Assembly: GCA_963705505.1 (NCBI GenBank)
Contig: CAVPJU010000005.1
Span: 10,472 to 74,471 of the forward strand
DNA from: an uncultured bacterium
Lineage (GTDB): Bacteria; Desulfobacterota_D; UBA1144; Nemesobacterales; UBA2774
DNA length: 64,000 bases
Direction of reading: 5' to 3'
Shown here: positions 876 to 48,245 of the stretch, piece by piece
Numbering within the stretch: the stretch's first letter is position 1
Layout: each line of letters opens with the position of its first letter
The notes under the pieces: generated by a model
What the model was told of the DNA's origin: nothing
Database searches by the model: none
The model's input: the letters and a program-made list of their open reading frames with translations, nothing else
Program-made: the position numbers and the translations under genes

Positions 876-1505
876 CCCTTCGACTGCACACTTCGTAAGC
901 GCTCAGGGTGAACGGGTTTACAAGGTTGATTGTCTCACCTCATTTCAATGCGCTTGCAATGACAAAGAAAAGGCAAAGCACACATGCTGAAGCAGATTCA
1001 GCGCAACACAATTGAGATTGCTGCTGTTGATTTGCTGCCTCATAAAGAAAAAGCAAAGGCAAAGATAGTTTCTTCTTTTCCTTGATGAAAAGAAGCAAAA
1101 ATCACACACATAGTGTGGTCTCTCGAAAAGACAGCACAGAATTGGCTAAAAATCCCTCGTTAACGCTAAAATGTTTTAATTCCACCCCAATTAGTATTAA
1201 GGCTTAGCGAAGCAAGACTCATGACATTATTGCATTTAGCGAATGGCGTCCGATTCCTTGCTTGCTCGGGATCGTCCCCTAAAACATTTTTCGTGCGTTA
1301 ACGAGTGATTTTCTTAACGCAAATTCTGTAATGTCGGGGGAAAAGGCTTTCTGAATTGATAGGACTAAGGTAACCCCCCACCCAAACCCTCCCCCCTTGA
1401 TAATTGGGGAGGGAATTTTATGTGCGGGCGCTTGCCCGCCGCCAATTCTGTGATGTCGGGGAAAAGAAAAGGCGGGATTGCCGCGCTTACTGCACGCAAT
1501 GACGA
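876..1505 (+). repeat. Intergenic mosaic repeat block
   Basis: TTCTTTTCCTTGATGAAAAGAA hairpin, long hairpin core 1130-1337 with one nested unit, CCCTCCCC/GGGGAGGG palindrome, GCGGGCGCTTGCCCGC module. Confidence 0.9.
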
Positions 1506-4499: not shown

Positions 4500-5292
4500 G
4501 ATGAAATTGCCGCGGTCGCTTCCGGCTTCGCCAGTAGGCTACTCCGGGACAAGCCGCTCTCTCGCAAAGACGAAGAAAAAGAAAAGATAATATCTTCTTT
4601 TCCTTGATACAAAGAACCAAAAATCACACACATAGTGTGGTCTCTCGAAAAGACGGATAAGAGAGAAGGCAAAAGTATTTTCTTCTTTTCCTTGATGACT
4701 CGTCAGGGCGGAGCCTGCCGTAGCCTGGAAAGAAGCAAAAATCATCCGACAGCACAGAATTTGCTAAAAATCTCTTGTTAACGCTAAAATGTTTCAATTC
4801 TACCCCAATTTGTATTAAGGCTTAGCGAAGCAAGACTCATGACATAATTGCATTTAGCGAATGGCGTCCGATTCCTTGCTTGCTCGGAATCGTCCCATGA
4901 AAGATTTATCGACGCCTTAATAATCTATTTTCTTCACGCCAATTCTGTGAATGTCGGGGAAAAGACAAAGGCTGGATTCCCGATCGTAGTCGGGAATGAC
5001 AGGAATATTAATGTACACCCCCACCCGGACCCTCCCCCTTTTCTTAAGGGGGAGGGAAATTTATATGTGGGCGCTTGCCCGCCGCTAATTCCGTGAATGT
5101 CGGGGAAAAAGACAAGATTCCCGATTAAGCCATTCGGGATTGATTGGTGTATTGAGGTAAACCCCCACCCGAACTATATTAGCTCAGGCAACCTAGAGCC
5201 AGGAGTTAAGGTGTGACGTACTCCTTGTTGGGGGTGCAACCGATTCCTTACTTGTTCGGAATCGTTCCCCACTTTAGAAAGGGGGGAGGAAA
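4500..5292 (+). repeat. Intergenic mosaic repeat block
   Basis: Same modules as 876-1505 plus GATTCCC..GGGAATGAC and a unit-filled palindrome at 5160-5290. Confidence 0.9.
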
Positions 5293-6839: not shown

Positions 6840-7345
6840 TGGACCCTGAAACGGGTTCAGGGTGACGGATATGAAAAGACAAAGAAAATGAAAAGTTAAA
6901 AATGTTTTTCTTCTTTTCCTTGATGACTCGTCAGGGCGGAGCCTGCCGTAGCCTGGAAAGAAGCAAAAATCACACACGTAGTGTGTTTCATGAAAAGACA
7001 GCACAGAATTGGCTAAAAAGTGATTATTCCGGCTAAAATATTTCAATTCCACCTCAATTAGTATTAAGGCTTAGCGAAGCAAGACTCATGACATAATTGC
7101 ATATAGCGAATGGCGTCCGATTCCTTGCTTGCTCGGAATCGTCCCGTAAAACATTTTCACGCCATAATAATCACTTTTCTTAACGCCAATTCTGTGAATG
7201 TCGGAAGGGAAAGACTTTCTTGATCGAGCAATAAAGTAAACCCCCCGCCCAAACCCTCCCCCCTTATAATGGGGGAGGGAATTTTATGCGCGGGCGCTTG
7301 CCCGCCGCCGATTCTGTGATGTCGGGGAAGGAAAAGACCAGGTTG
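6840..7345 (+). repeat. Intergenic mosaic repeat block
   Basis: Long hairpin core ~6998-7204 and associated modules. Confidence 0.9.
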
Positions 7346-7724: not shown

Positions 7725-8160
7725 CCCTTCGATCCTTCAACGGACACAGGACAGGAAGTTCGATCCTTCGATAGTTCGGCAAGCTCACTGCTCAGTATGA
7801 ACGGATTAGTATACTGAGGTGCCCCCTCATCCTTCACCTATTTTGGTTTAGGCGGCATTGAGCCGAGAGTTGAAGTCCTTCGGCGCCTTTGTTGGAAGGG
7901 CGTCCAATTGTGCGCTTGCTTGCAATCGTTCCTCGAAGGGGAGAAGGAATTCTCAAGCAAAGACAAAACGAAAGATTTATAAATTCTCCCTGACACTCTC
8001 GTCAGGGAGGAGCCAGCCGGAGCACGGCCTTTTTCTAAGGAGGGAATGAAAAGATAAAAGATGAGATTTCTCGCCTGCACCTCAAAATGACAAACTTCGG
8101 CAGGCTCAGGGCGAACGGGTTAAATGAAAAATTCACCTTAACCTTTTTTCAGAGCGGGAA
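7725..8160 (+). repeat. Intergenic mosaic repeat block (short modules)
   Basis: CCTTCGA..GCTCA modules, palindrome filled with a ~90-nt unit at 7841-7929. Confidence 0.75.
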
Positions 8161-11309: not shown

Positions 11310-12335
11310 GTCCTTCGATCCTTCGACTTCGCTCAGGACAGGCTCATTGCTCAGGACGAACGGGTTAAAGACGAGATTGCCGCGCGTCGTTTCACTGCGC
11401 TCGCAAGGACGAAAAAAAATGGAAAAATAATTTCTTCTTTGTCTTGATACAAAGAAGCAAAAATCACACACATAGTGTGGTCTTTCGAAAAGATGGATAA
11501 GAGAGAAGGCAAAAGTATTTTCTTCTTTTCCTTGATGACTCGTCAGGGCGGAGCCTGCCGTAGCCTGGAAAGAAGCAAAAATCACACACGTAGTGTGGTC
11601 TTTCGAAAGACAGCACATAATTGGCTGAAAATATCTGATTCTGGATTGGGATGTTCTCACAGATGAAAATCCTAATGAGCAAAGGTCTAATACACAACAA
11701 AATATATTCAATGAGAAATTAAAAGAGCAGACAAATAAATATATCAAAGACAGTTTCTTCTCGATTTTGAATGATGCAATCAATCCCATTTGTAAGGCGG
11801 TGATTGATCAAAAGTGTGGTCATACTATTAACATAATACATCCTAAGGCATTTGGTGATGAGCACTTGAGACCAGAAATAAAACTCGAAATCGGAGCACG
11901 GGCTTCAATGATGCCTTCCGCTGAATTTACTGTCAAACGTTATGCAGCTGAAGCTTTTCCTAGCGTGTTCGAGCAATTGGAAGTAAATGTTAATGCAATT
12001 AAAGCAGAGAGATCATTTTGGGAAAAGGTTACAATACTGCACGTTGAAGCTCATAGACCTAAAGATAAGGACGTCCGGATCGTTATTCGAGACATTATTA
12101 TGATGTTTATAAGATGCTAGGGACTCAAGCAGCAACTAATGCTTTATTGACATCTACCACTGGCGTCCAGTTGTTACGCTTGCTCAGAACCGTTGCTTAC
12201 AATCGTTACTTGCTCGGAATCGTCCCCTAAAACATTTTTCATGCGTTAACAAGCGATTTTCTTAACGCCAATTCTGTGAATGTCGGGGGAAACAGGAAGC
12301 GGATTCGAGTTCTTGAATCAACTTCAGGACAGGCT
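11310..12335 (+). repeat. Intergenic mosaic repeat block interrupted by a foreign gene fragment
   Basis: Left arm ends ~11634; repeat resumes ~12140 inside the innermost nested unit. Confidence 0.85.
11632..12155 (+). pseudogene. Internal fragment of an AbiEii/AbiGii-family nucleotidyltransferase toxin
   Basis: LILDW at the start, KLEIGAR, ERSFWEKVTILH, then after a frameshift RYSRHYYDVY; AT-rich; no start or end of gene. Confidence 0.8.
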
Positions 12336-12344
12336 GGGACGGGG

Positions 12345-13115
12345 TCAGGAGAGTGAAGCGGTTTTGCGGCGGATTACGAATAGCCCGGTTGCGGCGAGTA
12401 TGATTGCCATTACCGCTATGCCCCATTGCGAGAGCGCCGGGACCCGCTGAATGTTCGCGTTCGTGAAATACACCTTCTCGACGGCGTTGAAGCTAAGCTG
12501 CGTAATGAGGTCTGCGTCTATGAAGGTTATCCTTTCGATAAGCGAATCGGAGGTGATCCCGACAAACGTGTCGAAGAGGCTGTCAACCGGCACTGTGGTC
12601 TCGCCGAGCAGAACATTGCCCGCTCCGAAGACCTGCACAAGCATGGTCTGTCCGGTGCACGGCAGTCCGAAGCCCTGATCGAAGAGGCACCCCAGCTCGA
12701 GACCCACCGCATTTACATTATTTCCGGGAAACGTGATCACGCTCTTCTGGAGGGAGCCGTCGGGTAAGAGGACTTTCTCGGGATTCAGGTTCGAGAAAAG
12801 GAACGGCCCGGAAAGGATGGTATCCCCGAAGTCGGGGTCGGTGCTGAACGCTATGCCGGGCAGTATGTCGCCGGGCGAGAAACAATCGTCGTTTGAATTG
12901 CTGTCCACCGGAGTTGCACATCCTTTGATCTCTCCCGTGGCCACGTTGCCGCTTGCGAATGTCTGCAGAAGGAGTCCGGGGTTGTCCTGGATGAACTGTC
13001 CGCGGTTCGACGTGAATGTGACCTCGGCCTGAGATGTATCGGCGCTTATATAAAGCGCGACGGCCGATGAGGCCAGCAGCGTTATAAAGAAGATCGCACC
13101 ACGTATATCCAGCAT
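12345..13115 (-). CDS. IPTL-CTERM sorting-domain protein
   Basis: Signal peptide; C-terminal VPALSQWG + TM + RRK. Confidence 0.85.
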   Translation of the reverse strand: MLDIRGAIFFITLLASSAVALYISADTSQAEVTFTSNRGQFIQDNPGLLLQTFASGNVATGEIKGCATPVDSNSNDDCFSPGDILPGIAFSTDPDFGDTILSGPFLFSNLNPEKVLLPDGSLQKSVITFPGNNVNAVGLELGCLFDQGFGLPCTGQTMLVQVFGAGNVLLGETTVPVDSLFDTFVGITSDSLIERITFIDADLITQLSFNAVEKVYFTNANIQRVPALSQWGIAVMAIILAATGLFVIRRKTASLS

Positions 13116-13204
13116 TCCACTCCTCCTCTAAGATCTTACAATGCCACGATTATACCGAATATGAGGCGTTAATTCAATCCTGCCGGAGCCGGTTACGAGC
13201 TGGA

Positions 13205-13438
13205 TCACTGCTTGATTTCGACGGGGAGGGAGTTGTAAACGGAGCTGCCGTTTACTTCCTCTATGTTGACGTCGAGTACCTTATTTATGCTGCTGCCGTC
13301 GATCTGTTTGAGGTTCACGTCGATGATCCCGGTCGATGCGTCTACGTCCTTCGCTTGAAAAAACGGGTTAAGGAATATGCCCCAGAGCGCGAGCGCAATG
13401 AGGGTCAGGATTATTTTCGTGTAGGTGTCTATTTTCAT
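13205..13438 (-). CDS. Small membrane-anchored hypothetical protein
   Basis: GGAGG RBS; MKIDTYTKIILTLIA; repeated DVN(L/I)..(I/V)(D/N)G. Confidence 0.7.
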   Translation of the reverse strand: MKIDTYTKIILTLIALALWGIFLNPFFQAKDVDASTGIIDVNLKQIDGSSINKVLDVNIEEVNGSSVYNSLPVEIKQ

Positions 13439-13514
13439 GTGATGCCTCCTGTGAATATTTTAACCCGGATCGGGGTGGGTTTGTTGCCGCCTGATGGTGG
13501 GAGGATTTAAAAAT

Positions 13515-14105
13515 GGGAAAAGAAAGGCAAATATATTTCTCTTCTTTTCCTTGATGAAAAGAAGCAAAAATCACAGACTGCACAGAATTGTGCTGAAAAT
13601 ATCTTAATTAACGCTAAAATGTTTTAATTCCTCCCCAATTAGTATTAAGGCTTAGCGAAGCAAGACTCATGACATAATTGCATTTAGCGAATGGCGTCCG
13701 ATTTGTTTTGTTTTCTGCCGCTGCTGAACCAAACATTTGCATTGATGCACTCAGCGTAGGGCGTCCGGTTGTTCGGTTTTTGATTTTTTTACTTGGTGCC
13801 CAATACATTTGCTTTATTGAAATCTACCACTGGCGTCCAGTTCTTACGCTTGCTCAGAACTGTTGCTCACAACCGTTGCTTGCTCGGAATCGTCCCCTAA
13901 AACATTTTTACGCCTTAATAATCTATTTTCTTCACGCAAATTCTGTGAATGTCCTCAAAAAGATGGAGGCTGGGATAGTTGTTCGAAATTGTATGTCCGC
14001 GGGTGCTCACCCGCCGCCAATTCTGTGTATGTCGGGGAAACAAAATATTTTCGAGTATAACGCGTTCCTGCGCCCTGCGATCCTTCGACAAGCTGAGGAC
14101 AGGAA
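13515..14105 (+). repeat. Intergenic mosaic repeat block with triple-nested unit
   Basis: Core ~13576-13953 containing three GCGTCC-hairpin units. Confidence 0.9.
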
Positions 14106-14177
14106 TATAGCGGATAAATGTAAAGAAGAATTTATTCCGGGTTGAAAATGGGGGCGGAAACAAGAATACTTGCTCAG

Positions 14178-14921
14178 ATGAGGACTTTAGTCGTAGGGGA
14201 CATTCACGGGAACCTGAGAGCGTTGAGGCAGGCGTTCGAGCGCTCGGGGTTCGACCCCAAGGCGGACAGGCTCATATCGCTCGGCGACGTATTCGACGGC
14301 CACCCGTATTCCGCGGAGTGCGTCGAGGAGCTGATGAAGGTGAAGGACCTCGTCTGGTGCCTCGGGAACCACGACGCGCTTGCGCTCTCGTGGCTCCGGG
14401 GGGAATGGAAGGGTAAAAAGACGCTCGGCGAGTGGAAGTACGAGGAGCTTGTCATGATCATGTTTTCGTACGGCGGGGGGGAGAAAGAGGCCGACCGTGT
14501 GCGGATGAAGAGGCACGCTGAATTCGCGGGGCGTAAGTGTGTCCGTTACCACATCGATGAAGCGGACAGGTTCTATGTCCACGCGGGCATAGACTGGGAT
14601 TATCCTGTCGGCGAGCAGCCCGACCCCGGCGTTTATTACTACGACAGGAGGACGTACGCGCTGTTCGCGCCGCTTTACGAGATAGGCGGGATGAAGTTCC
14701 CCTACAGGGACGTGTTCGTCGGGCACACGAAGACCATACGCGAGTACCCGGACGGAAAGCCGGTGAGGAAGGCGAACCTCTGGAACCTCGACACGGGCGC
14801 GGGGACGTACGGGAAGCTCACGATAATGGATGCGGATACCTATGAATACTGGCAGAGCGATTGGGGGGAGGGGACGGAAGATGACTATAATTTTATGCTG
14901 AGAAAGAAAAATCTGTCGTGA
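14178..14921 (+). CDS. Calcineurin-like metallophosphoesterase
   Basis: GDIHG, GDVFD, GNHD, HAG, GHT, DTGA motifs. Confidence 0.9.
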   Translation: MRTLVVGDIHGNLRALRQAFERSGFDPKADRLISLGDVFDGHPYSAECVEELMKVKDLVWCLGNHDALALSWLRGEWKGKKTLGEWKYEELVMIMFSYGGGEKEADRVRMKRHAEFAGRKCVRYHIDEADRFYVHAGIDWDYPVGEQPDPGVYYYDRRTYALFAPLYEIGGMKFPYRDVFVGHTKTIREYPDGKPVRKANLWNLDTGAGTYGKLTIMDADTYEYWQSDWGEGTEDDYNFMLRKKNLS

Positions 14922-14954
14922 TGTTTATTTTGTAATGACGGAATAAAAAGACAA

Positions 14955-15217
14955 AGACGAGATTTCCACACTTCGTTTCAATTCGCTTACTACGACAAAG
15001 AAAAGGCAAATATAATTTCTTCTTTGTCTTGATACAAAGAAGCAAAAATCACACACAAAGCGTGGTCTTTCGAAAAGATGGATAAGAGAGAAGGCAAAAG
15101 TATTTCTCTTCTTTTACTTGTCAGGGCGGAGCCTCGACTGAAAGAAGCAAAAATCACACACGTAGTGTGTTTCATGAAAAGACAGCACAGAATTCGCTAA
15201 AAATATCTTATTCCGGC
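14955..15217 (+). repeat. Truncated mosaic repeat (left half only)
   Basis: Two short hairpins and the left arm, ending at TTATTCCGGC. Confidence 0.85.
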
Positions 15218-15481
15218 CCGACCGACGATAACGGCGCGCCCTCGCTGGGGGACCTCGCGAGGGGAGTGGATTTCATAGGCGAGATAGACGGCGGAGGCAG
15301 GGTGTTTATACATTGCTGGGAAGGGATAGGGAGGAGCGCCACAACGGCTGCCGCCTATTTCGTGAGCAGGGGGAGCACGCCTGTAGAGGCATGGAAGAGG
15401 ATTAAAAAAATCAGACCTTTCATCCGCCCGACGAAAACGCAGGTCGAGCGGCTAAACGAATATTCTGAAATACACCTGTGA
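15218..15481 (+). pseudogene. C-terminal half of a dual-specificity protein phosphatase
   Basis: HCWEGIGRS (CX5R) and IKKIRPFIRPT..Q; N-terminus replaced by repeat DNA. Confidence 0.75.
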
Positions 15482-15581
15482 GAATGTCACCCGGGCCCGT
15501 TCGGGGACGTTTAAATCCAAGCTGTTTTTGTCTTTGGAAAAATAAAGGGGCATGTAGGAACACGCCCCTTTTGTTGAATGC

Positions 15582-15839
15582 TTATTTCTTTTTAGCGGCT
15601 GCTTTCTTCTTAGGAGCAGCTTTCTTCGCGGCTGCTTTCTTCTTAGGAGCAGCCTTTTTCGGTGCCGCTTTCTTAGCCGTCGGCTTTTTCTTCGGCGCCG
15701 CTTTCTTCTTTGGAGCCGCTTTCTTAGCCGTCGCCATAAAAGCTACCGAGTGACGAGCCATCTTCGACTTTGAAGCCTTCTTCGCCGGCTTCTTCGCCGT
15801 TTTCTTTGCTGCCTTCTTAGCTGGTTTCTTTGTTGCCAT
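15582..15839 (-). CDS. Histone H1-like Lys/Ala-rich protein
   Basis: KKAA/PKKK repeats, AGGAG RBS, downstream hairpin at 15545-15572. Confidence 0.75.
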   Translation of the reverse strand: MATKKPAKKAAKKTAKKPAKKASKSKMARHSVAFMATAKKAAPKKKAAPKKKPTAKKAAPKKAAPKKKAAAKKAAPKKKAAAKKK

Positions 15840-16181
15840 TTACTGATCTCCTGTTTTAAGTGGATTTTTACAGATAAAAGATAATAGACTGACTACTAAC
15901 ACGGTTGTCTCTCAGCAGGCTTGTTATATCGGGCCGACTATAACTTCTGCTGGTACAAATTGCCCGTCATGCAACGACAACCTTATTGCACTTGTATGAC
16001 GGGGGTCTATTTTCTCATCTATTCAATCCTCCCTTTCAGTGAAATTACTGACATAATACAATACTAGCAGATATTTGTCAAATGTTTTTACCTGTTAATT
16101 TATCTGTCAGCTCTGCTTGATTTCCTTTGACAGAATGTTTATATTTATCGGAGCACTTTTTTAAACCGGAGAACCGGTGTT

Positions 16182-16967
16182 ATGACCGAGAAAAATCCCG
16201 AACCAAAATATAAAGCGCCGTCCGAAGGAATAGCCGGCGGGAAGAGCAAAAAGCGCAGCCCTAATTTTCCATGCATAGATCTTGAAAAGGCGCTGGAGCT
16301 GACAGAGAAGATTTACTCCATCGACAAGAGGGCGCCCATACCGGTCAATCTCCTCATAGCCAGGTGGGGGCTGCCGAAATATAATAGTTATGTCAGGCAG
16401 CTCATTGCGGCCCTTACCTACTACGGATTATTAGAGTCCATGGGGAAGGGGGAGAGCAGGAGGGTGGGCGTTTCGGACAGGGGGTACAGGATACTGGAGA
16501 AGGCCCCCGATAAGGCAAAGCTTCTGAGATCGGCCGCGCTCGAGCCGAAGCTCTTCAATGAGGTATGGCAGCATTACAAAACGAGGGGGCTTCCGAACAA
16601 CGACGTGCTCGAGAGGGACCTAGTCTGGCAGAACAGCTTCGCCAACACGAGATTCACGAAAAACGGGGCTAGGACGTTTATCAACAACCTGAAATCTACC
16701 GTCAATTTCGCTAAAATTTTACCGGACAATATCATGTACGGTGAAGATACGGGGTCGGAAGTCATAGACGTGATGATCCACGAGCAGAGCGGGACGGCCG
16801 CGACCGGGTCGTTCAGGCGGCTCGACCTTACCCTCGGGAGCGGGGAGGTGGCTACGATCCAGATCCCCACATCCATAACCATGAAGGAGATAAGGTACCT
16901 TCAGGACGGCATAAATCTTATAAAAGGGGACCTCTTCCCCGAAACCAAGGACGACGGAAGCAAGTAA
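16182..16967 (+). CDS. Hypothetical protein
   Basis: 261-aa ORF with GGAG RBS; SPNFP..L..AL and ALxxYGLL motifs suggest a winged-helix-like DNA-binding fold (inference). Confidence 0.7.
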   Translation: MTEKNPEPKYKAPSEGIAGGKSKKRSPNFPCIDLEKALELTEKIYSIDKRAPIPVNLLIARWGLPKYNSYVRQLIAALTYYGLLESMGKGESRRVGVSDRGYRILEKAPDKAKLLRSAALEPKLFNEVWQHYKTRGLPNNDVLERDLVWQNSFANTRFTKNGARTFINNLKSTVNFAKILPDNIMYGEDTGSEVIDVMIHEQSGTAATGSFRRLDLTLGSGEVATIQIPTSITMKEIRYLQDGINLIKGDLFPETKDDGSK

Positions 16968-17223
16968 AAACGGGCTTCCCGCGCCTTTTTGCCCCGATAA
17001 CGGGCTCCTCGGTAAAATACCTGTAAAAGCTAAGAGAGCAGAATCTGACAGAAACATCCCTTTCTGACGGACAGGGGCGGCATTAAAAATTCAATGACAA
17101 GGATATGTGAGAGTTGAGCCTCAAAGTTAAAGTAGGACGGGCCGGATTGCGCCTTTTTACAGGGGCTTCAGACAGGTGAGCCCGCCGGGACAGGGGCGGA
17201 AGCCGGATTTGGCGGGGGATTGA

Positions 17224-17980
17224 CCGGGGTAGGGTGACCCCCCATCCTGGCCTCCCCCTACCAGGGGGAAGGAAAAAGCATCATTCCTCGACAGGCGCAG
17301 GGCAAACGAGTTTTAAAGATGAGATTGCCGCGCTGCTTTGCTACATAATAAAGACAAAGAAAAGGCAAAGATATTTATCTTCTTTGTCTTGATACAAAGA
17401 AAATCAGACACAAAGCTGGTCTTTCGAAAAGACGGATAAGAGAGAAGGCAAAGATTTCTCTTCTTTTCCTGATGAAGCAAAAATCACACACGTAGTGTGT
17501 TTCATGAAAAGACAGCACAGAATTTGCTAAAAATATATTATTAAGGCTAAAATCTTTCAATTCCGCCCTAATTAGCATCGTGGTTTACAGTGAAGCAAGA
17601 CTCATGACATTGTTGCATTTGGGCAAGGGCGTCCGATTCGTTTTGTTTTCTGCCGCTGCTGAACCAAACATTTGCATTGATGCACTCAGCGTAGGGCGTC
17701 CGGTTGTTCGGTTTTTGATTTTTTTACTTGGTGCCCAATACATTTGCTTTATTGAAATCTACCACTGGCGTCCAGTTCTTACGCTTGCTCAGAACTGTTG
17801 CTCACAACCGTTCCTACTCGGAATCGTCCCATGAAAGATTTTCACGCCTTAACAATCTATTTTCTTAACGCCAATTCTGTGAATGTCGGGGAAGAGAAAA
17901 AACGAGATCCTGAAACGAGCCTGTCCTGAACTTGATTCAGGGTTCTGGATGACGTCCTTCGACAAGCTCAGGACGAACGG
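17224..17980 (+). repeat. Intergenic mosaic repeat block with triple-nested unit
   Basis: Core 17511-17890. Confidence 0.9.
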
Positions 17981-18046
17981 GTTGACTTCGAATGATGGTT
18001 TTGGAGAAGGAGTATAGAAGGAATCATAGAACACACTATGTGTGCG

Positions 18047-18991
18047 TCAAAGGGGGATGCCGAGGTTGATGAGGGCGTCGCCTTTGCGGACGGCGGGCGC
18101 TGACCTGACGCAGAGCACGTAGCCGCTTCTCCTCGCCTTTAAACTCACCTCTTCCCCGCCTTCGTTTCCGGATATGCTCGCAAGGAGGTCGCCTTTCCTC
18201 ACCCGGGAGCCGCAGCCGATGTGAAGCGAGTAATCGCCTCCGCATTTAGCCCTGACCCAGATTGCCCTGCCTATCACCTTCGTTTCGTTCCTTTCGGGAG
18301 CGCCCGTCCTCGTCATTCCCATGTAATCCATGAGCCTGAGTATTCCGTTCACGCACTCGGAGACAGCGAATTCAGAAAGGCGGCGGGACTCTCCCCCTTC
18401 GTAAACCAGCACGTTCTTGCCAGTGAGCCACGCGGCTTTTCTGAACGTGCCTTCCATGAGCGGGGAGTTCAGTATGAAAGGCGGGGAGAACGCGCGCGCG
18501 AGCTCCATGTTCTCGGGTACGGAGGTATCGCACCGGATGTGGGGGTAGTTCAGACTCGCGCCCCCGGAGTGGAGGTCGATGCCGCAGTCGGCGGCCGGAA
18601 GTATGTTCTGCATGATCGTCCGCGCCATTTTCACGGCTAGCGATCCCGAGGCCGAGCCGGGGAAACCCCTGTTGAGGTCTCTGCCGTCGGGCAGAAAGCG
18701 CGAGGAGTTGAGAAAGCCCCAGACGTTCGCAATCGGAAGGGCGATTACAGTGCCCGCGTCGGGCGCGATCGAGCCGTCGGAGATCATGCGCCTTAACGCT
18801 TCCACTCCGTTGAGCTCGTCCCCGTGGACGCCGGCGGTTATGAGCAGCACGGGGCCCGCTTCTTCACCCCTGAAAACGAAGACCGGCAGGCTGACCGCTC
18901 CGGCCCTCCTGTGGGTCGCGATCTCTATTCCCAGGAACTCCCTCCCGCCCCGCGGGATGAGCTTTCCGTTTATTTTTATATCGCTGCGCAT
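18047..18991 (-). CDS. Succinylglutamate desuccinylase/aspartoacylase (M14) family protein
   Basis: HGDELNG, DLNRGFPG, DLHSG, YEGG motifs; directly downstream of rimK. Confidence 0.9.
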   Translation of the reverse strand: MRSDIKINGKLIPRGGREFLGIEIATHRRAGAVSLPVFVFRGEEAGPVLLITAGVHGDELNGVEALRRMISDGSIAPDAGTVIALPIANVWGFLNSSRFLPDGRDLNRGFPGSASGSLAVKMARTIMQNILPAADCGIDLHSGGASLNYPHIRCDTSVPENMELARAFSPPFILNSPLMEGTFRKAAWLTGKNVLVYEGGESRRLSEFAVSECVNGILRLMDYMGMTRTGAPERNETKVIGRAIWVRAKCGGDYSLHIGCGSRVRKGDLLASISGNEGGEEVSLKARRSGYVLCVRSAPAVRKGDALINLGIPL

Positions 18992-19900
18992 CTATACCTT
19001 TATCCGGTCCCTTCTCAGACTGCGGACGTGGGCGTTATCCTCTATGAATTTAATAATCCTGGACGCTACGTCAACGCCCGTCGCGGTCTCTATGCCTTCG
19101 AGGCCCGGAGACGAGTTGACCTCGAGCACCATCGGGCCTTTCTCAGATTGTAACATGTCCACTCCGGCGACGTTGAGCCCCAGCAGGTTAGCGGCGTTCA
19201 CGGCGGTCTGCCACTCCTGCTTCGTGAGCTTTATCATCTTGGCGCTCCCGCCCCTGTGGAGGTTCGAGCGGAACTCGCCTTCCGAGCCCTGACGCCTCAT
19301 CGCGCCTATGACCTTTCCGCCTACGACGAACGCCCTCACGTCCGAGCCTTTGGATTCCTTAATGAATTCCTGAATCAGCATGTTCGCCTTCACGCCGTAA
19401 AACGCCTCCATGACGGATTTCGCCGCCTTCTTCGTCTCGGCTAGCACGACCCCTATGCCCTGCGTGCCGTGGAGGAGCTTTATGACGACGGGCGCTCCGC
19501 CGACGAGCTCGATAAGGTGGTTGATGTCCGTCGGGTCGGATGCGAACGCCGTGACGGGCATGCCTATCCCGGCGCGCGAGAGTATCTGCATGCTGCGGAG
19601 CTTGTCGCGGGACCTCGCTATGGCCTGCGACTCGTTCACCGAGAAGACGTGCATCATCTCGAACTGCCGGACTACTGCCGTGCCGTAGAACGTGCGCGAT
19701 GCGCCGATGCGGGGGATGACGGCGTCGACGCCCTTTATTTTTTTACCGTAGTGGTATATCTCGGGGTTGCCCCTTTTAATTACCATGTAGCACTTGAGGA
19801 AATCCACTACCTCGACCTCGTGTCCCATCTTCTCCGCAGCCTCGACGAGACGGCGCGTGGAGTAAAGCTTCTTGTTTCTCGAAAGCACGACTATTTTCAT
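18992..19900 (-). CDS. rimK: RimK-family alpha-L-glutamate ligase
   Basis: [47 protein letters not shown]. Confidence 0.95.
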
Positions 19901-20074
19901 AAAAACACTCCTGTGTGTTTTGTACAACGATACGGTTTCTTGAACACCTGTCGATCCGGCAGAGCGCCGGATGATATCTGCGGATGATTGCCTGTCGGGG
20001 ACTTCTCTCGCAATTAGTATGACATAAAAAAGGGGAAGCGGAAACGGGAATTTTTTTGCGGCAGTGGGATGCAG

Positions 20075-20665
20075 GATGCCATTGCTTCACGTTGCTCGCA
20101 ATGATAAAGAAAAGGCGAAGATGATTTCTTCTTTTCCTTGATGACAACGACAGGGCAGGATCCACACGTAGCCTGTGTATTCAAGAAGCAAAAATCATCC
20201 GACTGCACAGAATTGGCTAAAAATATACTATCTTAAGGCTAAAATCTTTCAATTCCACCCTAATTAGCATCGTGGTTTACAGTGAAGCAAGACTCATGAC
20301 ATTGTTGCATTTGGGCAAGGGCGTCCGATTCGTTTTGTTTTCTGCCGCTGCTGAACCAAACATTTGCATTGATGCACTCAGCGTAGGGCGTCCGGTTGTT
20401 CACTTGCTCACAACCGTTACTTACTCGGAATCGTCCCCTAAAAGATTTTTACGTCTCGATAATCTGTTTTCTTAACGCCAATTCTGTGATGTCGGGGAAA
20501 AGAAAGACTTTTTGGTTGATATGGATATTAATGTAAACCCCCACCTTATCCCTCCCCCTTGGAAATGGGGAGGGAATCAAAATGGAAGAATGAGAATGAA
20601 AGAGAAAAGATGAGATTGCCGCGCGCGGAGTTTATCCTGAGTTTATCGAAGGGCTCGCAATAACA
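20075..20665 (+). repeat. Intergenic mosaic repeat block with double-nested unit
   Basis: Core ~20199-20496. Confidence 0.9.
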
Positions 20666-21126
20666 GTAACGGATAGGACCCCGATGAAGTCGTTCAGTCT
20701 CTGTAAATGGTAAAAATTGTCATTTGAAAATTTTTGTTGTAACCCTAATGTTATATGCTATAGTAAGTAAGCACTTACTTATGAATGAGGATCTCACATT
20801 TGGTTTTACCGCAGTTCCGATGAGGTCATTACCTCCGAAAAACCTTTGCCCCGGCAGTATTTCCTCAATAATCACAGTTATTATCACCGCATTCCTGGCG
20901 AAGTCTCATTCACGGCTTTGCTCTTACGATCATTGCGCGGCTCTCGTTTAAACAAGCCCTAAAAATTATCCCTAGACAAATTAAGCATCTTACTTTATAT
21001 TGTTATCAATTCTTAAGTAGGGAGCTTAAATTGAGACAGCCCGATACCACACAGTCAACAGTCTTCGAAAGCGAAATCCCGTATCTCAACCATAAAATCA
21101 CGAGTAATAACCCGAGGGACATCTCT

Positions 21127-22206
21127 ATGAACAATCGTACGATACAGCCGAGAATCGCGGGCATTTCGACCGTCGTTCCGCCGAACAGCTTCAGCCAGGA
21201 CCTTGCGATAGAAACAGCGAAGAAGTGGCTGTCCTCGGGCGGAGCGCCCGAGCTTTCAGTCGCGAGAACGGTTCAGGTCTTTCAGAACGCGGGAGTCGAG
21301 ACCCGCTACAGCATCACCCCTCTGGATGAGATGCTGAGGGAGAAAGACTTCCCGGAGAGAAACGCTCTCTATAGCAAGTACGCGCGGATACTCGGAGAAA
21401 AGGCTTTGAAGAATGTATTCGAGAAAACCGGGATCAAGCCCTACGAGATCGACCTCTTTATCACCGTCTCGTGCACGGGCTTCATGATACCGGCTCTCGA
21501 CGCTTACATGCTGAACCGCTTTCCGTTCAGGAACAACGTGAGGCGCCTTCCCGTAACGGAGCTCGGATGCGCGGCCGGAGTCAGCTCGCTTATATTGGCA
21601 GGCGATTATATACGCGCACATCCCGATTCGAACGCCCTCATACTCTCTCTCGAGCTCTGCACGCTCAATATGCAGCCTACGGACAAGAGCGCGGACCACT
21701 TAATTTCAACGGCGATATTCGGGGACGGGGCCGCGGCCGCGATAGTCACGGGGAGGAAAGCCGAGAGCGGTCTACATATCGTCAAAACTGAAAACAGGTT
21801 TTTCCCCGGGACGCTCGACTTCATGGGATACGACGTGGAGAAGACGGGGTTCCACATATTCCTCTCTCCCGGTATCTCCAAGTTCATAGAGAAAAACATA
21901 TCGGAGCAGATGGGTTCGATACTCCGCGACGCGGGGCTGGGAATAGAGGATATCGACTCCTGGTTATTCCACCCGGGCGGTTCCCGCATTCTGAGGTCGA
22001 TTGAAAAGGGGCTCGGCATAGACAACGGTAAACTGCGGGACAGCGCGCAAGTGCTGAGGGACTACGGGAACCTTTCGTCGGCGACCATATTTTTTATCAT
22101 CGATTCCTATCTTCAGAACGAGCAAAAAAAGAGCGGTTCCTATCAGGTAGTGGGCGCAGTGGGTCCGGGGTTCGGTTTGGACACCATTCTCACGCAATGG
22201 AAATAA
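21127..22206 (+). CDS. Type III polyketide synthase
   Basis: LGCAAG (Cys), FGDGAAA, HPGG (His), YGNLSS (Asn), GPG. Confidence 0.95.
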   Translation: MNNRTIQPRIAGISTVVPPNSFSQDLAIETAKKWLSSGGAPELSVARTVQVFQNAGVETRYSITPLDEMLREKDFPERNALYSKYARILGEKALKNVFEKTGIKPYEIDLFITVSCTGFMIPALDAYMLNRFPFRNNVRRLPVTELGCAAGVSSLILAGDYIRAHPDSNALILSLELCTLNMQPTDKSADHLISTAIFGDGAAAAIVTGRKAESGLHIVKTENRFFPGTLDFMGYDVEKTGFHIFLSPGISKFIEKNISEQMGSILRDAGLGIEDIDSWLFHPGGSRILRSIEKGLGIDNGKLRDSAQVLRDYGNLSSATIFFIIDSYLQNEQKKSGSYQVVGAVGPGFGLDTILTQWK

Positions 22207-22225
22207 ACGAAAAGGAGAATCCATC

Positions 22226-23629
22226 ATGAGCATCAACAGCGTTGGTCTAAAAGCTGATGGGGAGGGCTTCAACGAAACGAGTTCGAAGGAATCCCATGAC
22301 GTACTTTACTCAAGGCACGTGAACCCGCAGTGGGTGAAGCTGTTCAACACGCTCGGGATGAACGCGAGGTACGAGTCCTGCCTCGGGGCGGAGGTACGCA
22401 CGGAGGATAAGCGCAGGCTGCTCGACTACCTCTCGGGCTACTGCGTTTATAACGCGGGGCATAACCATCCCCGGATCGTAGCCGCGCTCGCGGACGAGCT
22501 TTACAGGGGAGGGCCGACGATGCTCCAGAGCCATGTGCCCGAGCTTGCGGCTGAGCTCGCCGCGCGACTCTGCGCGCTCGCCGGAGGGCGTCTGAACAAG
22601 GTCTTTTTCACGAGCTCCGGGAGCGAGGGGGTCGAGACGGTGATAAAGTTTTCCCGCGCCCATACGAACAGGCCGGGGATCCTCTACTGCCACAGGGCGT
22701 TTCACGGGCTTACATGCGGCGCTCTATCGCTGATGGACGACCCCTACTGGCGTAAAGGGTTCGGACCTCTCCTGCCTTATACGGAGGGGGTGCCGTTCCT
22801 CGATCTCGAAGCGCTCGAAGAAAAGCTGAAGAGCAGACGTTTCGCCGCGTTTATCGTCGAGCCGATCCAGTCCGAAGCCGGCGTGCGCGTGCCCCATGAC
22901 GGTTATCTGAAGCAAGCCGAGAGCCTGTGCCGGAGATACGGGACGCTCTTCGTCCTCGACGAGGTGCAGACCGGCATTTACAGAACGGGGCCTTTCCTCG
23001 CAGCGCACCACTGGGGGCTCGATCCGGACATGGTCATCCTCGCAAAGGCGCTCAGCGGAGGGTTCGTCCCCTGCGGGGCAGTGCTTATGACCGACGAGAT
23101 AAACCGCTCGGTTTACAGCTCCGTCTTCCGCGCATTCGTCCACACCTCGACCTTCGGCGAGAATAACCTCGCCATGCGCGCGGGGCTCGCCACGCTCGAC
23201 GTGATGCAGGAGGAAGGCCTGGGCGAGCGCGCAATAGTGCTCGGGGAGCGTCTGAGAAACGGGCTCAAAGAGGTCTCCGGGAATTACGAAATGGTCCACG
23301 GGATAAACGGCATGGGACTCCTGAACGGGATAGAGTTCGGAGAGCCTAAAATGCTCAGGCTTAAAATACCCTACGAGACTTTCAAGAGAATCCATCCGGC
23401 AATGTTCGGTATGATCGTCGTGATGCGGCTATTCAGGGAGAAGAACATCCTGACGCAGATATGCGGCAATAACCACATGGTGGTGAAGGCATCTCCCCCG
23501 CTCGTCGTGACGGAGGCCGGTATAGACAAGTTCGTGTCCTCGATGGGGGAGATACTGGAGACGATCCACACGAAGGCGTCGTTCTGGTCGGAGGCGCTCC
23601 TTATGGCAAGGCGCGCGGTGAATATATGA
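22226..23629 (+). CDS. Class III PLP aminotransferase (HpnO/ornithine-AT-like)
   Basis: GHNHP, SGSEGVE, FHGLT, EPIQSE, DEVQTG, AKALSGG, STFG. Confidence 0.9.
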   Translation: MSINSVGLKADGEGFNETSSKESHDVLYSRHVNPQWVKLFNTLGMNARYESCLGAEVRTEDKRRLLDYLSGYCVYNAGHNHPRIVAALADELYRGGPTMLQSHVPELAAELAARLCALAGGRLNKVFFTSSGSEGVETVIKFSRAHTNRPGILYCHRAFHGLTCGALSLMDDPYWRKGFGPLLPYTEGVPFLDLEALEEKLKSRRFAAFIVEPIQSEAGVRVPHDGYLKQAESLCRRYGTLFVLDEVQTGIYRTGPFLAAHHWGLDPDMVILAKALSGGFVPCGAVLMTDEINRSVYSSVFRAFVHTSTFGENNLAMRAGLATLDVMQEEGLGERAIVLGERLRNGLKEVSGNYEMVHGINGMGLLNGIEFGEPKMLRLKIPYETFKRIHPAMFGMIVVMRLFREKNILTQICGNNHMVVKASPPLVVTEAGIDKFVSSMGEILETIHTKASFWSEALLMARRAVNI

Positions 23630-27744: not shown

Positions 27745-28020
27745 AAGGAAAGAAAAAGCAAAGGCAAAGATAGTTTCTTCTTTTCCTTGATGAAAAGAAG
27801 CAAAAATCATCCGACACACAGAATTGTGCTAAAAATCCCTCGTTAACGCTAAAATGTTTTAATTCCGCCGCAGCCCTAAAAGATTTTCATGCCTTAATAA
27901 TCGATTTTCTTAACGCCAATTCTGTGAATGTCGGGGAAAAGAAAAAGACGAAAGACCGGATTGCCGCGCCGCTCAGCAGCTCGCAATAACATCCCTCGAC
28001 AGGCTCAGGACGAACGGGCT
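27745..28020 (+). repeat. Mosaic repeat block with empty core
   Basis: Core 27811-27935 with no nested unit. Confidence 0.9.
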
Positions 28021-28749: not shown

Positions 28750-29400
28750 AGAGATGAGATTGCCGCGCTTCTTCGCAGCTCGAAATGACAAAGAAATAGC
28801 AAAGGAATGAAAAATAAAAGGCAAAAATAGTTTTCTTCTTTTCCTTGATGAAAAGAAGCAAAAATCATCCGACACACAGAATTGTGCTAAAAATCCATCG
28901 TTAACGCTAAAATCTTTCAATTCCACCCACACACCTGAAACGATTTTCACGCGTTAACAAGCGGTTTTCTTAACGCAAATTCTGTGAATGTCGGGGAAGG
29001 AAAAGGCAAGATTGCTGCGCTTCGTTTCACTGCGCTCGCAATGACAAAGAAAAAAGATGAGATTCCCGATGAAAGCGGTCGGGAATGACGGAAAGATTAA
29101 GGTAAACCCCCCACCCCCACCCTCCCCCACTTTGAAAAGGGGGGAGGGAATTAAATCTAAAAAAGAAGTGATTGCTGCGCTTACATTTTCGTTCCGCTTG
29201 CAATGACAATTAATACGTCCTTCGATCCTTCGATAAACTCAGGACAGGCTCCTGCTCAGGACAAACGGGAAATATCACCCCATCCTCACCTTCTCCCTTT
29301 CTAGGGGGAAATAATAATGCGTCCTTCGACAAGCTAAGAACAGGCTGGATTTTATCCGGGTGGTCCCCGACCCGCACCCTCCCCCTATCGAGGGGGGAAA
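28750..29400 (+). repeat. Mosaic repeat block with empty core
   Basis: Core 28868-28995 followed by several short palindromic modules. Confidence 0.9.
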
Positions 29401-36004: not shown

Positions 36005-36390
36005 GTGGATTCCCGATAGAGACATTCGGGAATGACAGAAAAATTAAGGTAATCCCCCCACCCAAACTATTTTGGCTCAGGCATTGTTGAGCCGGAGATA
36101 AGCACCTTCGTTGCCTTTGTTGTAAGTGTGACCTACTTATTTTGGCTTCAATAGAGTATCCCAAGAACATTAGCATTTCAGTATTCAACCAGAGGCGACC
36201 GGATTCTCGCTTATTCGAATCCGTTGCTTGCTCGAAGCAGTTCCCCTTAATAAGGGGAGGGAAATTAAAGGAATGGATTCCCGGCTCGTCAGGGCGTCGC
36301 CGTGGCAAGCCCGGTCGTGGTCGGGAATGACGTCTTTCGACACGCTCAGGACGAACGGACAAGAAATTGAATCCTCTCTGACCCTCTTTA
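36005..36390 (+). repeat. Mosaic repeat block with double-nested unit in a palindrome
   Basis: Outer unit 36070-36241, inner unit 36140-36224. Confidence 0.8.
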
Positions 36391-40009: not shown

Positions 40010-40865
40010 AAGGCGAAGGTAATTTCTTCGTTGTCTTTCCTGAAATGAATTCAGGACAGGGATGCAAAGAAGCAAAAATCACACACGTAGTGTGTTTCAT
40101 GAAAAGACAGCACAGAATTTGGCTAAAAATATCTTATTCAGGCTAAAATCTTTCAATTCCTCCCTAATTAGCATCGTGGCTTACAATGAAGTAAGAGTAA
40201 TGACGTTATTGCATTTAGGAAAGGGCGTCCGATTCATTTTGTTTTCTGCCGCTGCTGAACCAAACATTTGCATTGATGCACTCAGCGTAGGGCGTCCGGT
40301 TGTTCGGTTTTTGATTTTTTTACTTGGTGCCCAATACATTTGCTTTATTGAAATCTACCACTGGCGTCCAGTTCTTACGCTTGCTCAGAACGTCGCTCAC
40401 AACCGTTACTTGCTCGGAATCGTCCCCTGAAACATTTTTTTCGTGCGTTAACATCCGATTTCTTAACGCCAATTCTGTGAATGTCGGGAAGAAAAAGGCG
40501 AAAGACGAGATTGCCGCGGTTGCTTTGCAACCTCGCAATGACAGATGAGAAACGAGATCCAGAATAGATCCCGGATTTTTTGGATTGATAGACGAATGAC
40601 CGTGGAACAGGTTCGCTGTCACATTTAGCCAAAGGCGCCCCATTCCTCGCTCATCCGAAATTGTAGTCCGGGACATAGTTCAGGATGACTGTAAATGGAT
40701 TCCCGATCGTAGTCGGGAATGACAGGAATTTTAAGGTACTCCCTCACCTTAATTTGGATTAAGGAACAATTAGCCGGAGGTCCAGTAGCTTAAGTGCGGT
40801 TACGGTAAGATGTCCTATTTCTCCTATTTGTCGAAATAGTTCCCTCCCTCGTGGGGGAGAGGAAA
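40010..40865 (+). repeat. Intergenic mosaic repeat block with triple-nested unit
   Basis: Core ~40105-40488; unit-filled palindrome 40751-40840. Confidence 0.9.
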
Positions 40866-42139: not shown

Positions 42140-42832
42140 ATTATTTTTTTCTTTGTCCTGATAACAAAAAAAATCAGCACACACAGTGTGTGGATTATGA
42201 AAAAGACAAAGAAAGGCAAATATTATTTCTTCTTTTCCTTGATGAAAAGAAGCAAAAATCACACACGTAGTGTGTTTCATGAAAAGACAGCACAGAATTA
42301 GCTAAAAATATCTTATTAAGGCGAAAATCTTTCAATTCCGCCCCAATTAGTATCAAGGCTTAGCGAAGCAAGACTCATGACATAATTGCATTTAGCGAAT
42401 GGCGTCCGATTGTTTTGGCTTGAGTAGATTATCCGAAGAACATCAGCATAGTGCATTCAGCTAAAGTCGTCCGATTGTGCGGTTTTTGATTTTTTTACTT
42501 GGTGCCCAATACATTTGCTTTATTGAAATCTACCACTGGCGTCCAGTTCTTACGCTTGCTCAGAACTGTTGCTTACAATCGTTACTTGCTCGGAATCGTC
42601 CCATGAAAGATTTATTGACGCCTTAATAATCTATTTTCTTAACGCCAATTCTGTGAATGTCGGGGGAGAAAAAGGCGTTCGGGAATGGCAGGAATATTGA
42701 GGTAAACCCCCACCAGACTATTTTGGTTTAGGAAACGTTTAGCCTGAAGTGAAGTGGCTATGTTGCTATTGTTGGGAAAACGTCCTGACTGCTCGCTTGC
42801 TCGCAGCATGCCCTTAAGAAAAGGGGAGGGAA
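42140..42832 (+). repeat. Intergenic mosaic repeat block with triple-nested unit
   Basis: Core ~42286-42665 with an alternative middle unit; unit-filled palindrome 42721-42809. Confidence 0.9.
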
Positions 42833-44764: not shown

Positions 44765-45300
44765 AGGCTCAGGGCGAACGGGGTTTCGACGCTAGATTGC
44801 CGCGTTTCATTTCAATACGCCTGCAATGGCAAAGAGAAGGCAAAGATATCTCTCTTCTTTTCCTTCAGGAAAAGAAGCAAAAATCGCACGTGTGTGCGTT
44901 TTATGAAAGACATAGAACAAAGATAAGGCAAACATATTTTCTTCTTTTCCTTGATGAAAAGAAGCAAAAATCATCCGACAGCACAGAATTGGCTAAAAAC
45001 AGACTATCTCGACTAAAATCTTTTAATTCAGCCCCAATTAGTATTAAGGCTTAGCGAAGCAAGACTCATGACATAATTGCATTTAGCGAATGGCGTCCGA
45101 TTGCTTTGGCTTGAGTTGCTCGGAACCGTCCCCTAAAAGATTTTTACGTCTCGATAATCTGTTTTCTTAACGCCAATTCTGTGTATGTCGGGGAAAAGAA
45201 AAGATTTTCGGGAATTACATGTCCCTGCGTTCTTCGATCCTTCAACAGGCTCAGGACGAACGGGGTGGAAAATGAGATTCTGAAACAAGTTCAGAATGAC
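44765..45300 (+). repeat. Intergenic mosaic repeat block
   Basis: Core 44975-45192 with an internally deleted second unit. Confidence 0.9.
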
Positions 45301-47809: not shown

Positions 47810-48245
47810 AAAACACCCCCATCCACACCTTCCCCCTTTCTAAGGGGAAGGGAATGAAAGGAATGGATTCCCGATCGTGGTCGGGAATGACAAAAAAATC
47901 CATCCTAACCTAATTTGGGATATAGCAACATTGAACCCGAAGTTAATCTCCTTCGGCGCTCTTGTAGGGGTAGGGCGTCCGAATGCGCGCTTGCTTGCGT
48001 TCGTCCCCCTTTACAAAACCCTCTCCCATGCAGGGGAGTGGGAAATAAAAACTTGTATTGCCTGAGTGCCGTGGTAAGGAGACTTATTTGCAATCAGCCA
48101 ATGGCGTCCGGTTCTTGCTAATTTGGTTTCTACAACATCAACACGGAGTGATATTCGCGTTCATGGATTCAACCAGTAGAGCGACCGAATTCTTCACTTG
48201 CTCGAGAATTGTTGTTCAGAACCGTTATTCGGGAATGACAAAAAT
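47810..48245 (+). repeat. Mosaic repeat block with divergent nested units
   Basis: Unit 47912-48004; nested pair ~48050-48225 with inner unit 48120-48212. Confidence 0.75.

Follow-up and report, generated by a model that had tools for sequence, protein, structure and literature searches.

How a short DNA repeat comes to lie inside the hairpin loop of a second repeat of the same kind, itself inside the loop of a third, is the question raised by one intergenic locus in the stretch analysed here, a window of 64,000 nt from the genome (G000) of an uncultured bacterium of the lineage UBA2774 (GenBank assembly GCA_963705505.1, contig CAVPJU010000005.1, positions 10,472 to 74,471). A preliminary description of the window had placed three nested units at 13637-13893, and this is confirmed to within 1-2 nt: the outer unit A1 contains B1, which contains C1, over a span of 13637-13892. 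The units very likely represent a true family of insertion elements, and it is probable that this family is lineage-specific and non-autonomous, with members of ~86-100 nt. The sections of evidence that carry this answer are the covariation of the unit's end, the syntenic sites that are empty in relatives, and the difference in age between inner and outer units.

The outer unit A1 (13637..13892, + strand), delimited by sequence reading and scripted coordinates, begins with a leader (13637-13692), followed by the box GGCGTCC (13693-13699) and a partial 5' stem, CGATT, that runs to 13703, where the next unit interrupts it; on the far side are its intact loop, TTGCTTGCTC (13876-13885), and the 3' stem GGAATCG (13886-13892). 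The middle unit B1 (13704..13875, +) has its box at 13760-13766, the stem CGGTTGT/ACAACCG and a loop, TCGG...TTGCTC, that is split by C1, so that TTGCTC and ACAACCG follow C1 and are followed in turn by the loop and 3' stem of A1. The inner unit C1 (~13775..13862, +), with its box at 13832-13838, the stem CAGTTCT/AGAACTG and the loop TACGCTTGCTC, is the only one of the three with an uninterrupted hairpin. The nest lies within a long palindrome, whose left arm, CACAGAATT...AATTCCTCCCC (13581..13636, +), and right arm, TCCCCTAAAAC...AATTCTGTG (13893..13947, +), were delimited by sequence reading, folding and scripted coordinates and pair with each other when 13581-13950 is folded as DNA (z = -3.0). 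In a related genome, G007, the syntenic site has this palindrome without an insert.

Across the family, a unit has a variable leader of ~55-60 nt; next comes the box, G(G)CG(T/A)CC, and then a hairpin whose 7-bp stem covaries and whose 10-nt loop is conserved (YNRCTYGCTY), the 3' stem closing the unit. The 5' strand of the stem follows the consensus C-R-N-N-T-S-Y, and its 3' complement ends in CG. At the 5' end a C-rich flank is followed by R and (A/T)TTTGG, which can also be given as (Y)R-TTTGG, and then by ~55 poorly conserved nt; the leader diverges freely in sequence and is unalignable across subfamilies, with its length conserved. The units are non-coding and measure ~86-88 nt. None has terminal inverted repeats, as one end reads (Y)RTTTGG... 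and the other ...stem-CG, and some copies are 5'-truncated.

The box and the stem both exceed what chance would give. GGCGTCC occurs 36 times in the window, 30 of them on the + strand, against 11.1 +/- 3.6 (maximum 20) in 100 shuffles. The compensatory change of the stems, which the preliminary description had read by eye, is borne out by two data sets. At 46 distinct sites picked by box and loop motif alone, without a pairing pre-filter, 296 of 322 stem cells (91.9%) are paired, compared with a shuffled mean of 73.5% and a shuffled maximum of 78.6%. Among 141 covariance-model matches, drawn from pieces of five genomes totalling ~580 kb and aligned in a manner fitted to the model, 95.1% of stem cells are paired and compensatory changes are seen at 7/7 pairs, which 0/500 shuffles reach. 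Only this 3' hairpin is predicted by RNAalifold from the 141-match alignment, which gave no consensus leader structure, and folds of single units recover the hairpin and little else, being no better than shuffles (z -0.2 to -2.2). Guide-like complementarity between leader and target, looked for by eye, gave nothing consistent. The family had been regarded as matching no named one, and this view holds in the collections queried: Rfam returned no match over the whole window at the gathering threshold or at E <= 1, so that membership of an Rfam RNA family was rejected, and plasmid and phage collections queried with the palindrome plus A1 gave none. No tRNA or tmRNA gene was detected in the window, and a search of the literature on Dadabacteria repeats and on nested MITEs (miniature transposable elements with inverted repeats) or stem-loops found nothing relevant.

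The window holds 15 complete long palindromes, of which 3 are empty, 7 carry one unit (one of these also a deleted remnant), 1 is double and 4 are triple. All the occupancy states said to exist at the same host site are therefore present, the 12 filled palindromes having been placed by scripted coordinates and the 3 empty ones confirmed. On the + strand, single units occupy the palindrome loops at 1189..1274, 4807-4892, 7056-7141 and 34881-34967, all intact A1 copies, and at 25981-26067 (A3) and 46538-46623; at 45036..45128 an A1 unit holds in its loop an internally deleted B2 remnant, in which TTTGGCTTGAG is joined to TTGCTC. Besides the focal nest (13637), triples are found at 17570..17826 (A2 > B1 > C1), 40166..40422 (A2' > B1 > C1) and 42345..42598 (A1 > B2 > C1), and the double at 20262..20433 is A2 > B1 without C1. 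The empty palindromes, with the loop ...CCGCCGCAGCCC..., lie at 27817..27926, 28875-28986 and 51304-51416, also on the + strand.

These states could reflect either sequential insertion or deletion from one ancestral triple structure. The window is collinear, at ~75-85% nucleotide identity, with contigs of four genomes of the same genus (G007:C10, G003:C2, G009:C31 and G006:C23, written genome:contig), whose palindromes lie in the corresponding intergenic gaps. For 11 of the 12 filled palindromes, the same flanking genes enclose an empty palindrome in at least one relative. G007 has ...AATTCTACCCCACCCCGTGGAAG... at the focal site, and G000 has ...CCCC[AATTAG...256 nt...GGAATCG]TCCCC.... An intermediate state is preserved at the 20.2 kb site, where G006 aligns continuously from the upstream gene through an A2-like outer unit whose hairpin is intact and which lacks B1; the hairpin is CGATTCC TCTCTTGCTC GGAATCG in G006 versus CGATTCG[B1]TTACTTACTC GGAATCG in G000. 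The palindromes of the relatives are mostly empty: 39/55 in 160 kb of G007:C10, 17/20 in G009:C31, 6/6 in G003:C2 and 3/4 in G006:C23.

The sequences of the units point in the same direction. Between composite loci, the A leaders share 75-86% identity, B1 97-100%, and the C1 core 100%, the latter being identical to the focal copy at 17704-17801, 40300-40396 and 42475-42572. The combinations are also mixed, since C1 is found in both B1 and B2, which are only 65% identical to each other, and B1 in A1, A2 and A2'; both B types occur without C1 as well, B1 at 20329-20420 and B2 at C9:42664-42751. Unit boundaries are sharp: at eight A1 loci the leaders average 95% identity, and the adjoining 20 nt 83% on the left and 80% on the right. 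Synteny, the age gradient, the combinations and these boundaries together argue against deletion from an ancestral triple and support sequential insertion as the favoured course of events, as had been suggested. Contigs from four metagenome runs, over 12400-21000, include several forms with an empty loop and one that has CC in place of precisely 13704-13875; as these pieces extend 20-50 nt on their shorter side and have repeat-level depth, they are possibly paralogous copies and were not counted as same-locus polymorphism.

The same observations bear on the view that the nested stems form one functional structured RNA or DNA with optional domains, of which the shorter forms are deletions, nothing being mobile. 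Conserved length and covariation would be expected of such a structure, and the host palindromes are old and stand at syntenic intergenic positions. However, the inner units are younger than the outer ones, one and the same inner unit is found in hosts unrelated to each other and in further genomes, the syntenic sites of most relatives are empty, Rfam holds no counterpart even at a permissive threshold, and consensus structure is confined to the 3' hairpin, the rest of single units folding like shuffled sequence. We consider this explanation very unlikely.

If units were inserted, where they landed can be read from their junctions. In long palindromes they lie at the centre of the C-rich loop (CCCCA^YCCC), at CCCC/GGGG hairpins (here 'P' hairpins) at the 5' foot (CACC^TTCCCC), in hairpins resembling repetitive extragenic palindromic (REP) sequences (GATTSCSG...AATGAC) in the loop, and in other units 5' of TTGYT, where stem and loop meet or four nt inside the loop. 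Common to these points is a following T-Y-S-C, in a C-rich or TTGCT context, a motif that is degenerate and differs by subfamily. A T stands directly 3' of the unit in 137 of the 141 matches, among which the 3' flanks are TTCC (41), TCCC (23), TTGC (21), TTTC (12) and TTCT (11), with TTCC, TCCC and TTGC making up 85/141. The description of the element as structure-targeting is not established by these data, because the insertion points (5' edge of a loop, middle of a loop, 5' foot of a stem) share a short sequence rather than one structural position.

The 3' junction is exact, and the host sequence or loop 3' of the insert is untouched. In the 5' stem of the host the last 1-2 nt differ, with CC changed to TG, CG, CA or G, and the 1-2 nt that precede TTTGG are TA, TG, CG, CA or GG, a mismatch to what the host stem requires; on the simplest reading, these nucleotides belong to the element and ~2 nt of the target are lost. 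No target duplication was found at the 12 palindrome sites or at the nested sites, which agrees with the earlier account of 1-3 altered nt and no duplication. The orientation of a unit is fixed relative to its host repeat. At the G007:C10 site syntenic to window 4.7 kb, a REP-like hairpin insert of ~40 nt follows CCCCAC in place of a unit (concatenated reverse coordinates 88942-89126), which indicates that other small elements also use the palindrome loop position.

Nesting follows from the target preference of certain subfamilies. The loop of the element itself contains TTGCTYGCTC, and in four genomes members of subfamilies B, C and E are seen inserted 5' of TTGYT in this conserved loop. As these subfamilies prefer a motif carried by their own family, they land in earlier units, each bringing a fresh site, and so build nests two and three deep; the claim that the element rebuilds its own target is upheld in this sense. 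Self-nesting is a trait of the family rather than of one locus, with 22 of the 141 units lying inside another unit (9/42 in G000, 6/29 in G003, 4/26 in G009 and 3/43 in G007). B1-like copies of 90-93% identity in G007:C10 and G004:C44 stand 5' of a TTGCTCGCTC loop that belongs to another unit type, one with a short leader.

The distribution of the family is narrow. With a nhmmer profile of 21 units, 74 copies are detected in G000 (2.88 Mb); contig C5 has 35 of them, all on the + strand. Covariance-model searches, in which the counts per genome are lower bounds, place units in 26/32 other genomes of the same family (27/33 counting G000), in 1/28 genomes from seven other families of the order, and in 28/120 genomes of the phylum, that is, essentially in one family-level lineage.

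An enzyme-free route could account for part of this pattern. In microhomology-templated copying, a hairpin would stall or break replication, and the nascent strand would switch to a filled paralogous hairpin, copy the insert and switch back, using as short flanks GGCGTCC and the stem on the left and TTGCTYGCTC or TCCC on the right; in a variant, gene conversion would follow hairpin cleavage. Such copying is consistent with the occurrence of one host type per subfamily (A in long palindromes, D at P hairpins, B/C/E in unit loops), with the 1-2 nt before the insert that travel with it and mismatch the recipient stem, with the lack of a transposase family that tracks the element, with the 16-nt direct repeats of a tRNA 3' end that bracket some tRNA-adjacent units, and with one unit contained in a 175-nt tandem duplication. 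It fits less well with the flanks of near-identical A1 copies, which diverge within 5-10 nt of both junctions (the 95% versus 83%/80% noted above), or with B1 in hairpins of different stems (CGATTC, CGGTTC and CTACTT), and it gives no account of the box, covarying stem, loop and leader length that are conserved across subfamilies with unalignable leaders. Templated copying, the main rival, is unlikely in our view.

Several units adjoin tRNA genes. Units with a short leader immediately follow tRNA-Arg(TCT) and, as a tandem pair, tRNA-Arg(CCT) (G000:C10:547150-547320 and G000:C8:189208-189470). Behind each of them stand 16 nt that repeat the 3' end of the tRNA, which resembles the att repeats of islands that target tRNA genes; an open reading frame (ORF) for a truncated tyrosine recombinase stands just upstream of the tRNA-Arg(TCT) gene. 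At G000:C4:195-522, a 175-nt tandem duplication (1.9 copies, 98% identical) comprises the 5' end of tRNA-Arg(ACG), its upstream region and a unit, and the hairpin of the second unit is disrupted.

For the insertion of units, we propose a DNA-level, orientation-specific cut-and-join on unpaired DNA, either single-stranded or extruded as a hairpin, in which a trans-acting protein would recognise the conserved box-hairpin-loop end as its handle. The logic would be like that of HUH single-strand transposition, as in IS200/IS605 and REP/RAYT, without membership of the HUH family, and the enzyme may lie outside the recognised families or may no longer be encoded. That the chemistry is specifically HUH-like is possible but doubtful. 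A bolder combination, which we put forward only tentatively and think rather unlikely to hold as a whole, has as mover an unrecognised enzyme class (not HUH, DEDD, DDE or reverse transcriptase) that would bind the box-hairpin-loop end, join 5' of T in unpaired DNA and delete ~2 nt, with the host palindromes as an integrase-less cassette array, the two together forming a layered, self-referential mobile-DNA ecosystem in one family.

A number of observations weigh against movement by insertion of this kind. Neither an excised intermediate nor same-locus polymorphism within a population has been shown, the metagenome contigs being too short for locus assignment. Outside contig C5 the orientation of units has no relation to GC skew (13/11/10/5), and lagging-strand-coupled HUH elements usually show an orientation bias. 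Known transposases do not usually replace 2 nt at a 5' junction, and the restriction of each subfamily to one host type is also expected from homology-driven copying. Finally, no enzyme was found, and no family searched for tracks the units.

The search for the enzyme covered the canonical candidates. G000, which is 93.6% complete, gave no match for integron integrase, Y1-HUH (PF01797), IS110 DEDD (PF01548), RVT_1 or TnpB. In the 33 family genomes (27 with units), Y1 is found in 5, IS110 in 6, RVT_1 in 8 and TnpB in 3, and in the unit-rich genus g4 both Y1 and RVT_1 are found in 0/7 genomes. A Y2-HUH search also gave 0 matches in G000, a result that is uninformative because its control matched no reference genome. 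Pfam scans of 146 ORFs (54 in the window, 62 from the start of C5, C4 and C9, and 30 at the ends of the G007 array) detected no transposase or recombinase. Mobilisation in trans by an enzyme, as originally put forward, is something we infer, and no candidate enzyme family tracks the element.

The reverse transcriptase counts bear directly on RNA-mediated spread, in which the unit would be transcribed, its 3' hairpin bound by a reverse transcriptase, and the copy made by target-primed reverse transcription into a nick, in the manner of a short interspersed nuclear element (SINE). An exact 3' junction with a variable 5' junction, a conserved 3' stem-loop with a free 5' region, and the 5'-truncated copies are all compatible with it. 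Against it stand the absence of RVT_1 from G000 and from the genomes of g4, its presence in no more than 8/33 of the family, and the lack of a poly-A or other tail, with no promoter shown. This route is very unlikely.

The one lead for a mover among the genes, and a weak one, is a set of small DUF559 genes, encoding a Vsr-like nuclease. The preliminary description had advised looking for a gene flanked by the element's ends, with DUF559 among the candidates; Y1-HUH, IS110 and reverse transcriptase candidates are absent from G000, and DUF559 genes bracketed by P-hairpin ends do stand beside units, with a weak link to them. Strong DUF559 matches occur in 17/61 genomes, and 15 of these 17 carry units compared with 13/44 of those without a strong match, counts in which related genomes are not independent samples. 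The link is weak because genome G013 has at least 45 units and no DUF559.

The genes in question are bracketed by inverted CCCCCACC...CCTCCCCC/GGGGGAGG P hairpins (G000:C9:21950-22560, with the gene at 22122-22442, G004:C44:1280-2990 and G007:C10:214600-215080). These DUF559 genes adjoin units, and the P hairpin is scattered through the window; as inverted copies bracket the genes, the evidence suggests that P hairpins are solo ends of a DUF559 mini-element. In G004, one downstream P end carries a D-type unit and the neighbouring P end is empty.

The long palindromes that host the A units raise a question of their own. These composite palindromes of ~170 nt all lie on one strand regardless of gene orientation, in nearly every intergenic gap of window 1-56600 and of G007:C10:69566-222290; on G007:C10, 69 palindromes share a strand over 153 kb, and none is found in the first 69 kb of the contig. 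The gene blocks between them behave like cassettes. Only G000 and G007 have a polyketide synthase (PKS) operon block (window 20.7-25.5 kb), G009 and G006 lack window 20.1-28.1 kb, and the block at 29.5-31.7 kb is placed in G007 between 37.9 and 38.4 kb. This arrangement would be explained by a cassette array that has no integrase, or else by homologous recombination that shuffles blocks between repeats of like orientation.

A further possibility is that the palindromes serve a cassette array as attC-like recombination sites, with an integron-type integrase shuffling the units as variable terminal structures. The palindromes are indeed co-oriented, as in the 69 on one strand across 153 kb of G007:C10, with cores of ~110 nt, and stand between gene blocks that are gained, lost and moved at palindrome boundaries. 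However, no integron integrase (TIGR02249) scored above cut-off in G000 or in five well-assembled relatives (G003, G007, G011, G013 and G014; 0/6), no recombinase lies at the G007 array end (the other boundary runs off the contig), the genes are on both strands, consensus cores of the types R'' (RYYYAAC) and R' (GTTRRRY) are not evident in arms read by eye, and units also occupy hairpins outside the array. Shuffling by an integron-type integrase is very unlikely on this evidence.

The palindromes also affect assembly. Contigs C5 and C9 both break off at their 3' ends within palindrome repeats, which evidently fragment the assembly. The start of C5 (G000:C5:148-3258) and the end of C9 (G000:C9:43269-46412) each have an ORF of ~1040 aa that matches an MtrC/MtrF-like domain below threshold. 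More generally, unit and palindrome repeats break assemblies and inflate intergenic regions in genome bins of the lineage.

Other units of the window, all on the + strand, lie outside the long palindromes. Single D-type units stand at the 5' foot of a P hairpin at 7832..7932, 47905-48007, 63846-63945, 31771-31871, 35098-35197, 42712-42812 and 5168-5268, and at 36061..36240 a D-type unit at a P hairpin has a B-like unit (36131-36227) 5' of its TTGCTTGCTC loop. In a nested pair at 48052..48226, the loop of the outer unit (box 48103) contains an E-type unit (48112-48215), and the pair lies within a REP-like hairpin ending GGGAATGAC. Two families of REP-like hairpins, GGATTCCCGA...TCGGGAATGAC and GATTGCCGCG...CGCAATGAC, are abundant between genes and are also hosts of units (1470-1500, 4975-5005, 35995-36035 and many more). 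Window 12099-12270 holds the right half of a triple nest (a C1-like 3' part, the B and A 3' stems and the right palindrome arm) with unrelated sequence in place of the left half, and is thus a truncated composite. In addition, some long palindromes have in their left flank an optional small palindrome, the module CACAC(G/A)TAGTGTG (TTTCATGAAAAG; 1075-1134, 6940-7001 and 17455-17515, among other sites), which others lack; the module, which also follows two tRNA genes immediately at their 3' ends (C8 and C10), is probably another small inserted element.

Small hairpin repeats fill the intergenic DNA of bacteria, and we know of no explanation for the spread of most of them outside REP/RAYT and IS200/IS605. 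IS200/IS605 elements and their ORF-less derivatives, palindrome-associated transposable elements (PATEs), have no inverted terminal repeats and make no target duplication, insert strand- and orientation-specifically beside a fixed motif of 4-5 nt, use an end hairpin as the handle of the enzyme and require unpaired DNA. The units are likewise without inverted terminal repeats or duplication, orientation-specific and provided with an end hairpin, and would also require unpaired DNA, but their motif is degenerate and differs by subfamily, they have no left-end hairpin or Y1, their hairpin abuts the junction, ~2 nt are replaced at the far junction, and no GC-skew bias is seen outside the array. 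Membership of the PATEs was rejected, as hairpins at both ends and a Y1 TnpA are expected, and only the 3' hairpin is conserved and Y1 is absent from G000. A classical MITE derived from a DDE element was rejected too, in the absence of terminal inverted repeats and of duplication at the 12 palindrome or nested sites.

Hairpin repeats are known insertion sites of other elements. IS110/IS1111 elements insert into REP or attC hairpins, IS1397 and ISKpn1 target REP loops, and the IS110 type has no inverted terminal repeats or target duplication. The likeness to the units lies in this use of hairpin repeats; the difference is that those elements are autonomous and 1-1.5 kb long, and the units contain no region conserved like a bridge RNA. 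With the DEDD transposase PF01548 absent from G000 and found in 6/33 family genomes, membership was rejected. The Helitron and IS91 rolling-circle elements, which lack inverted terminal repeats and target duplication, possess a subterminal hairpin at the 3' end, insert before T, and have one precise and one less precise end. The 3' hairpin, the insertion before T and the single exact end are common to the units, whose size and termini differ. An integron attC/cassette array was rejected for want of IntI above cut-off in six genomes and of a recombinase at the G007 array boundary, and a SINE-like or group II retroelement because RVT_1 is absent from G000 and present in 8/33 family genomes.

Repeats that insert into repeats have a possible precedent in the SDR4-6 repeats of Nostoc punctiforme, which Elhai et al. 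in 2008 reportedly described as 21-27 nt sequences that insert into other repeats and into one another, respecting hairpin structure and with no known transposase. The units differ from these SDRs in being ~90 nt long with a long variable leader and a distinct box and loop, and in belonging to a different phylum from the cyanobacteria; the two are unrelated in sequence. REP/REPIN sequences with their RAYT (TnpA-REP, Y1-HUH) transposases (PMC3116915) are, along with PATEs and the Nostoc SDRs, the closest described kind. REPINs and units are both short, non-coding, vertically inherited, lineage-specific and non-autonomous hairpin repeats between genes, both have a short conserved box 5' of a covarying stem, and both persist at syntenic sites (PMC3116915). 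A REPIN as characterised there consists of two inverted REPs in one long hairpin, whereas a unit has one 7-bp hairpin and an unstructured leader of ~60 nt. The cognate RAYT gene (PF01797), in such systems a single copy that its REPs usually flank, is absent from G000 and from 28/33 family genomes, and membership was rejected given that absence in G000 and the lack of a doublet structure. To our knowledge, nesting into its own loop is not a described feature of REPINs.

This family of units offers an unusually clean natural experiment, with dozens of syntenic sites that are empty, single, double or triple across species, exact 3' junctions, a covarying end, and none of the canonical hairpin-DNA enzymes searched for being found, so that what moves enzyme-less hairpin repeats becomes directly testable. 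Compared with the systems above, the units are real and well supported as a variant, apparently not described before, within the class of mobile DNA that hairpin repeats form, and the evidence of their insertion is unusually clear.

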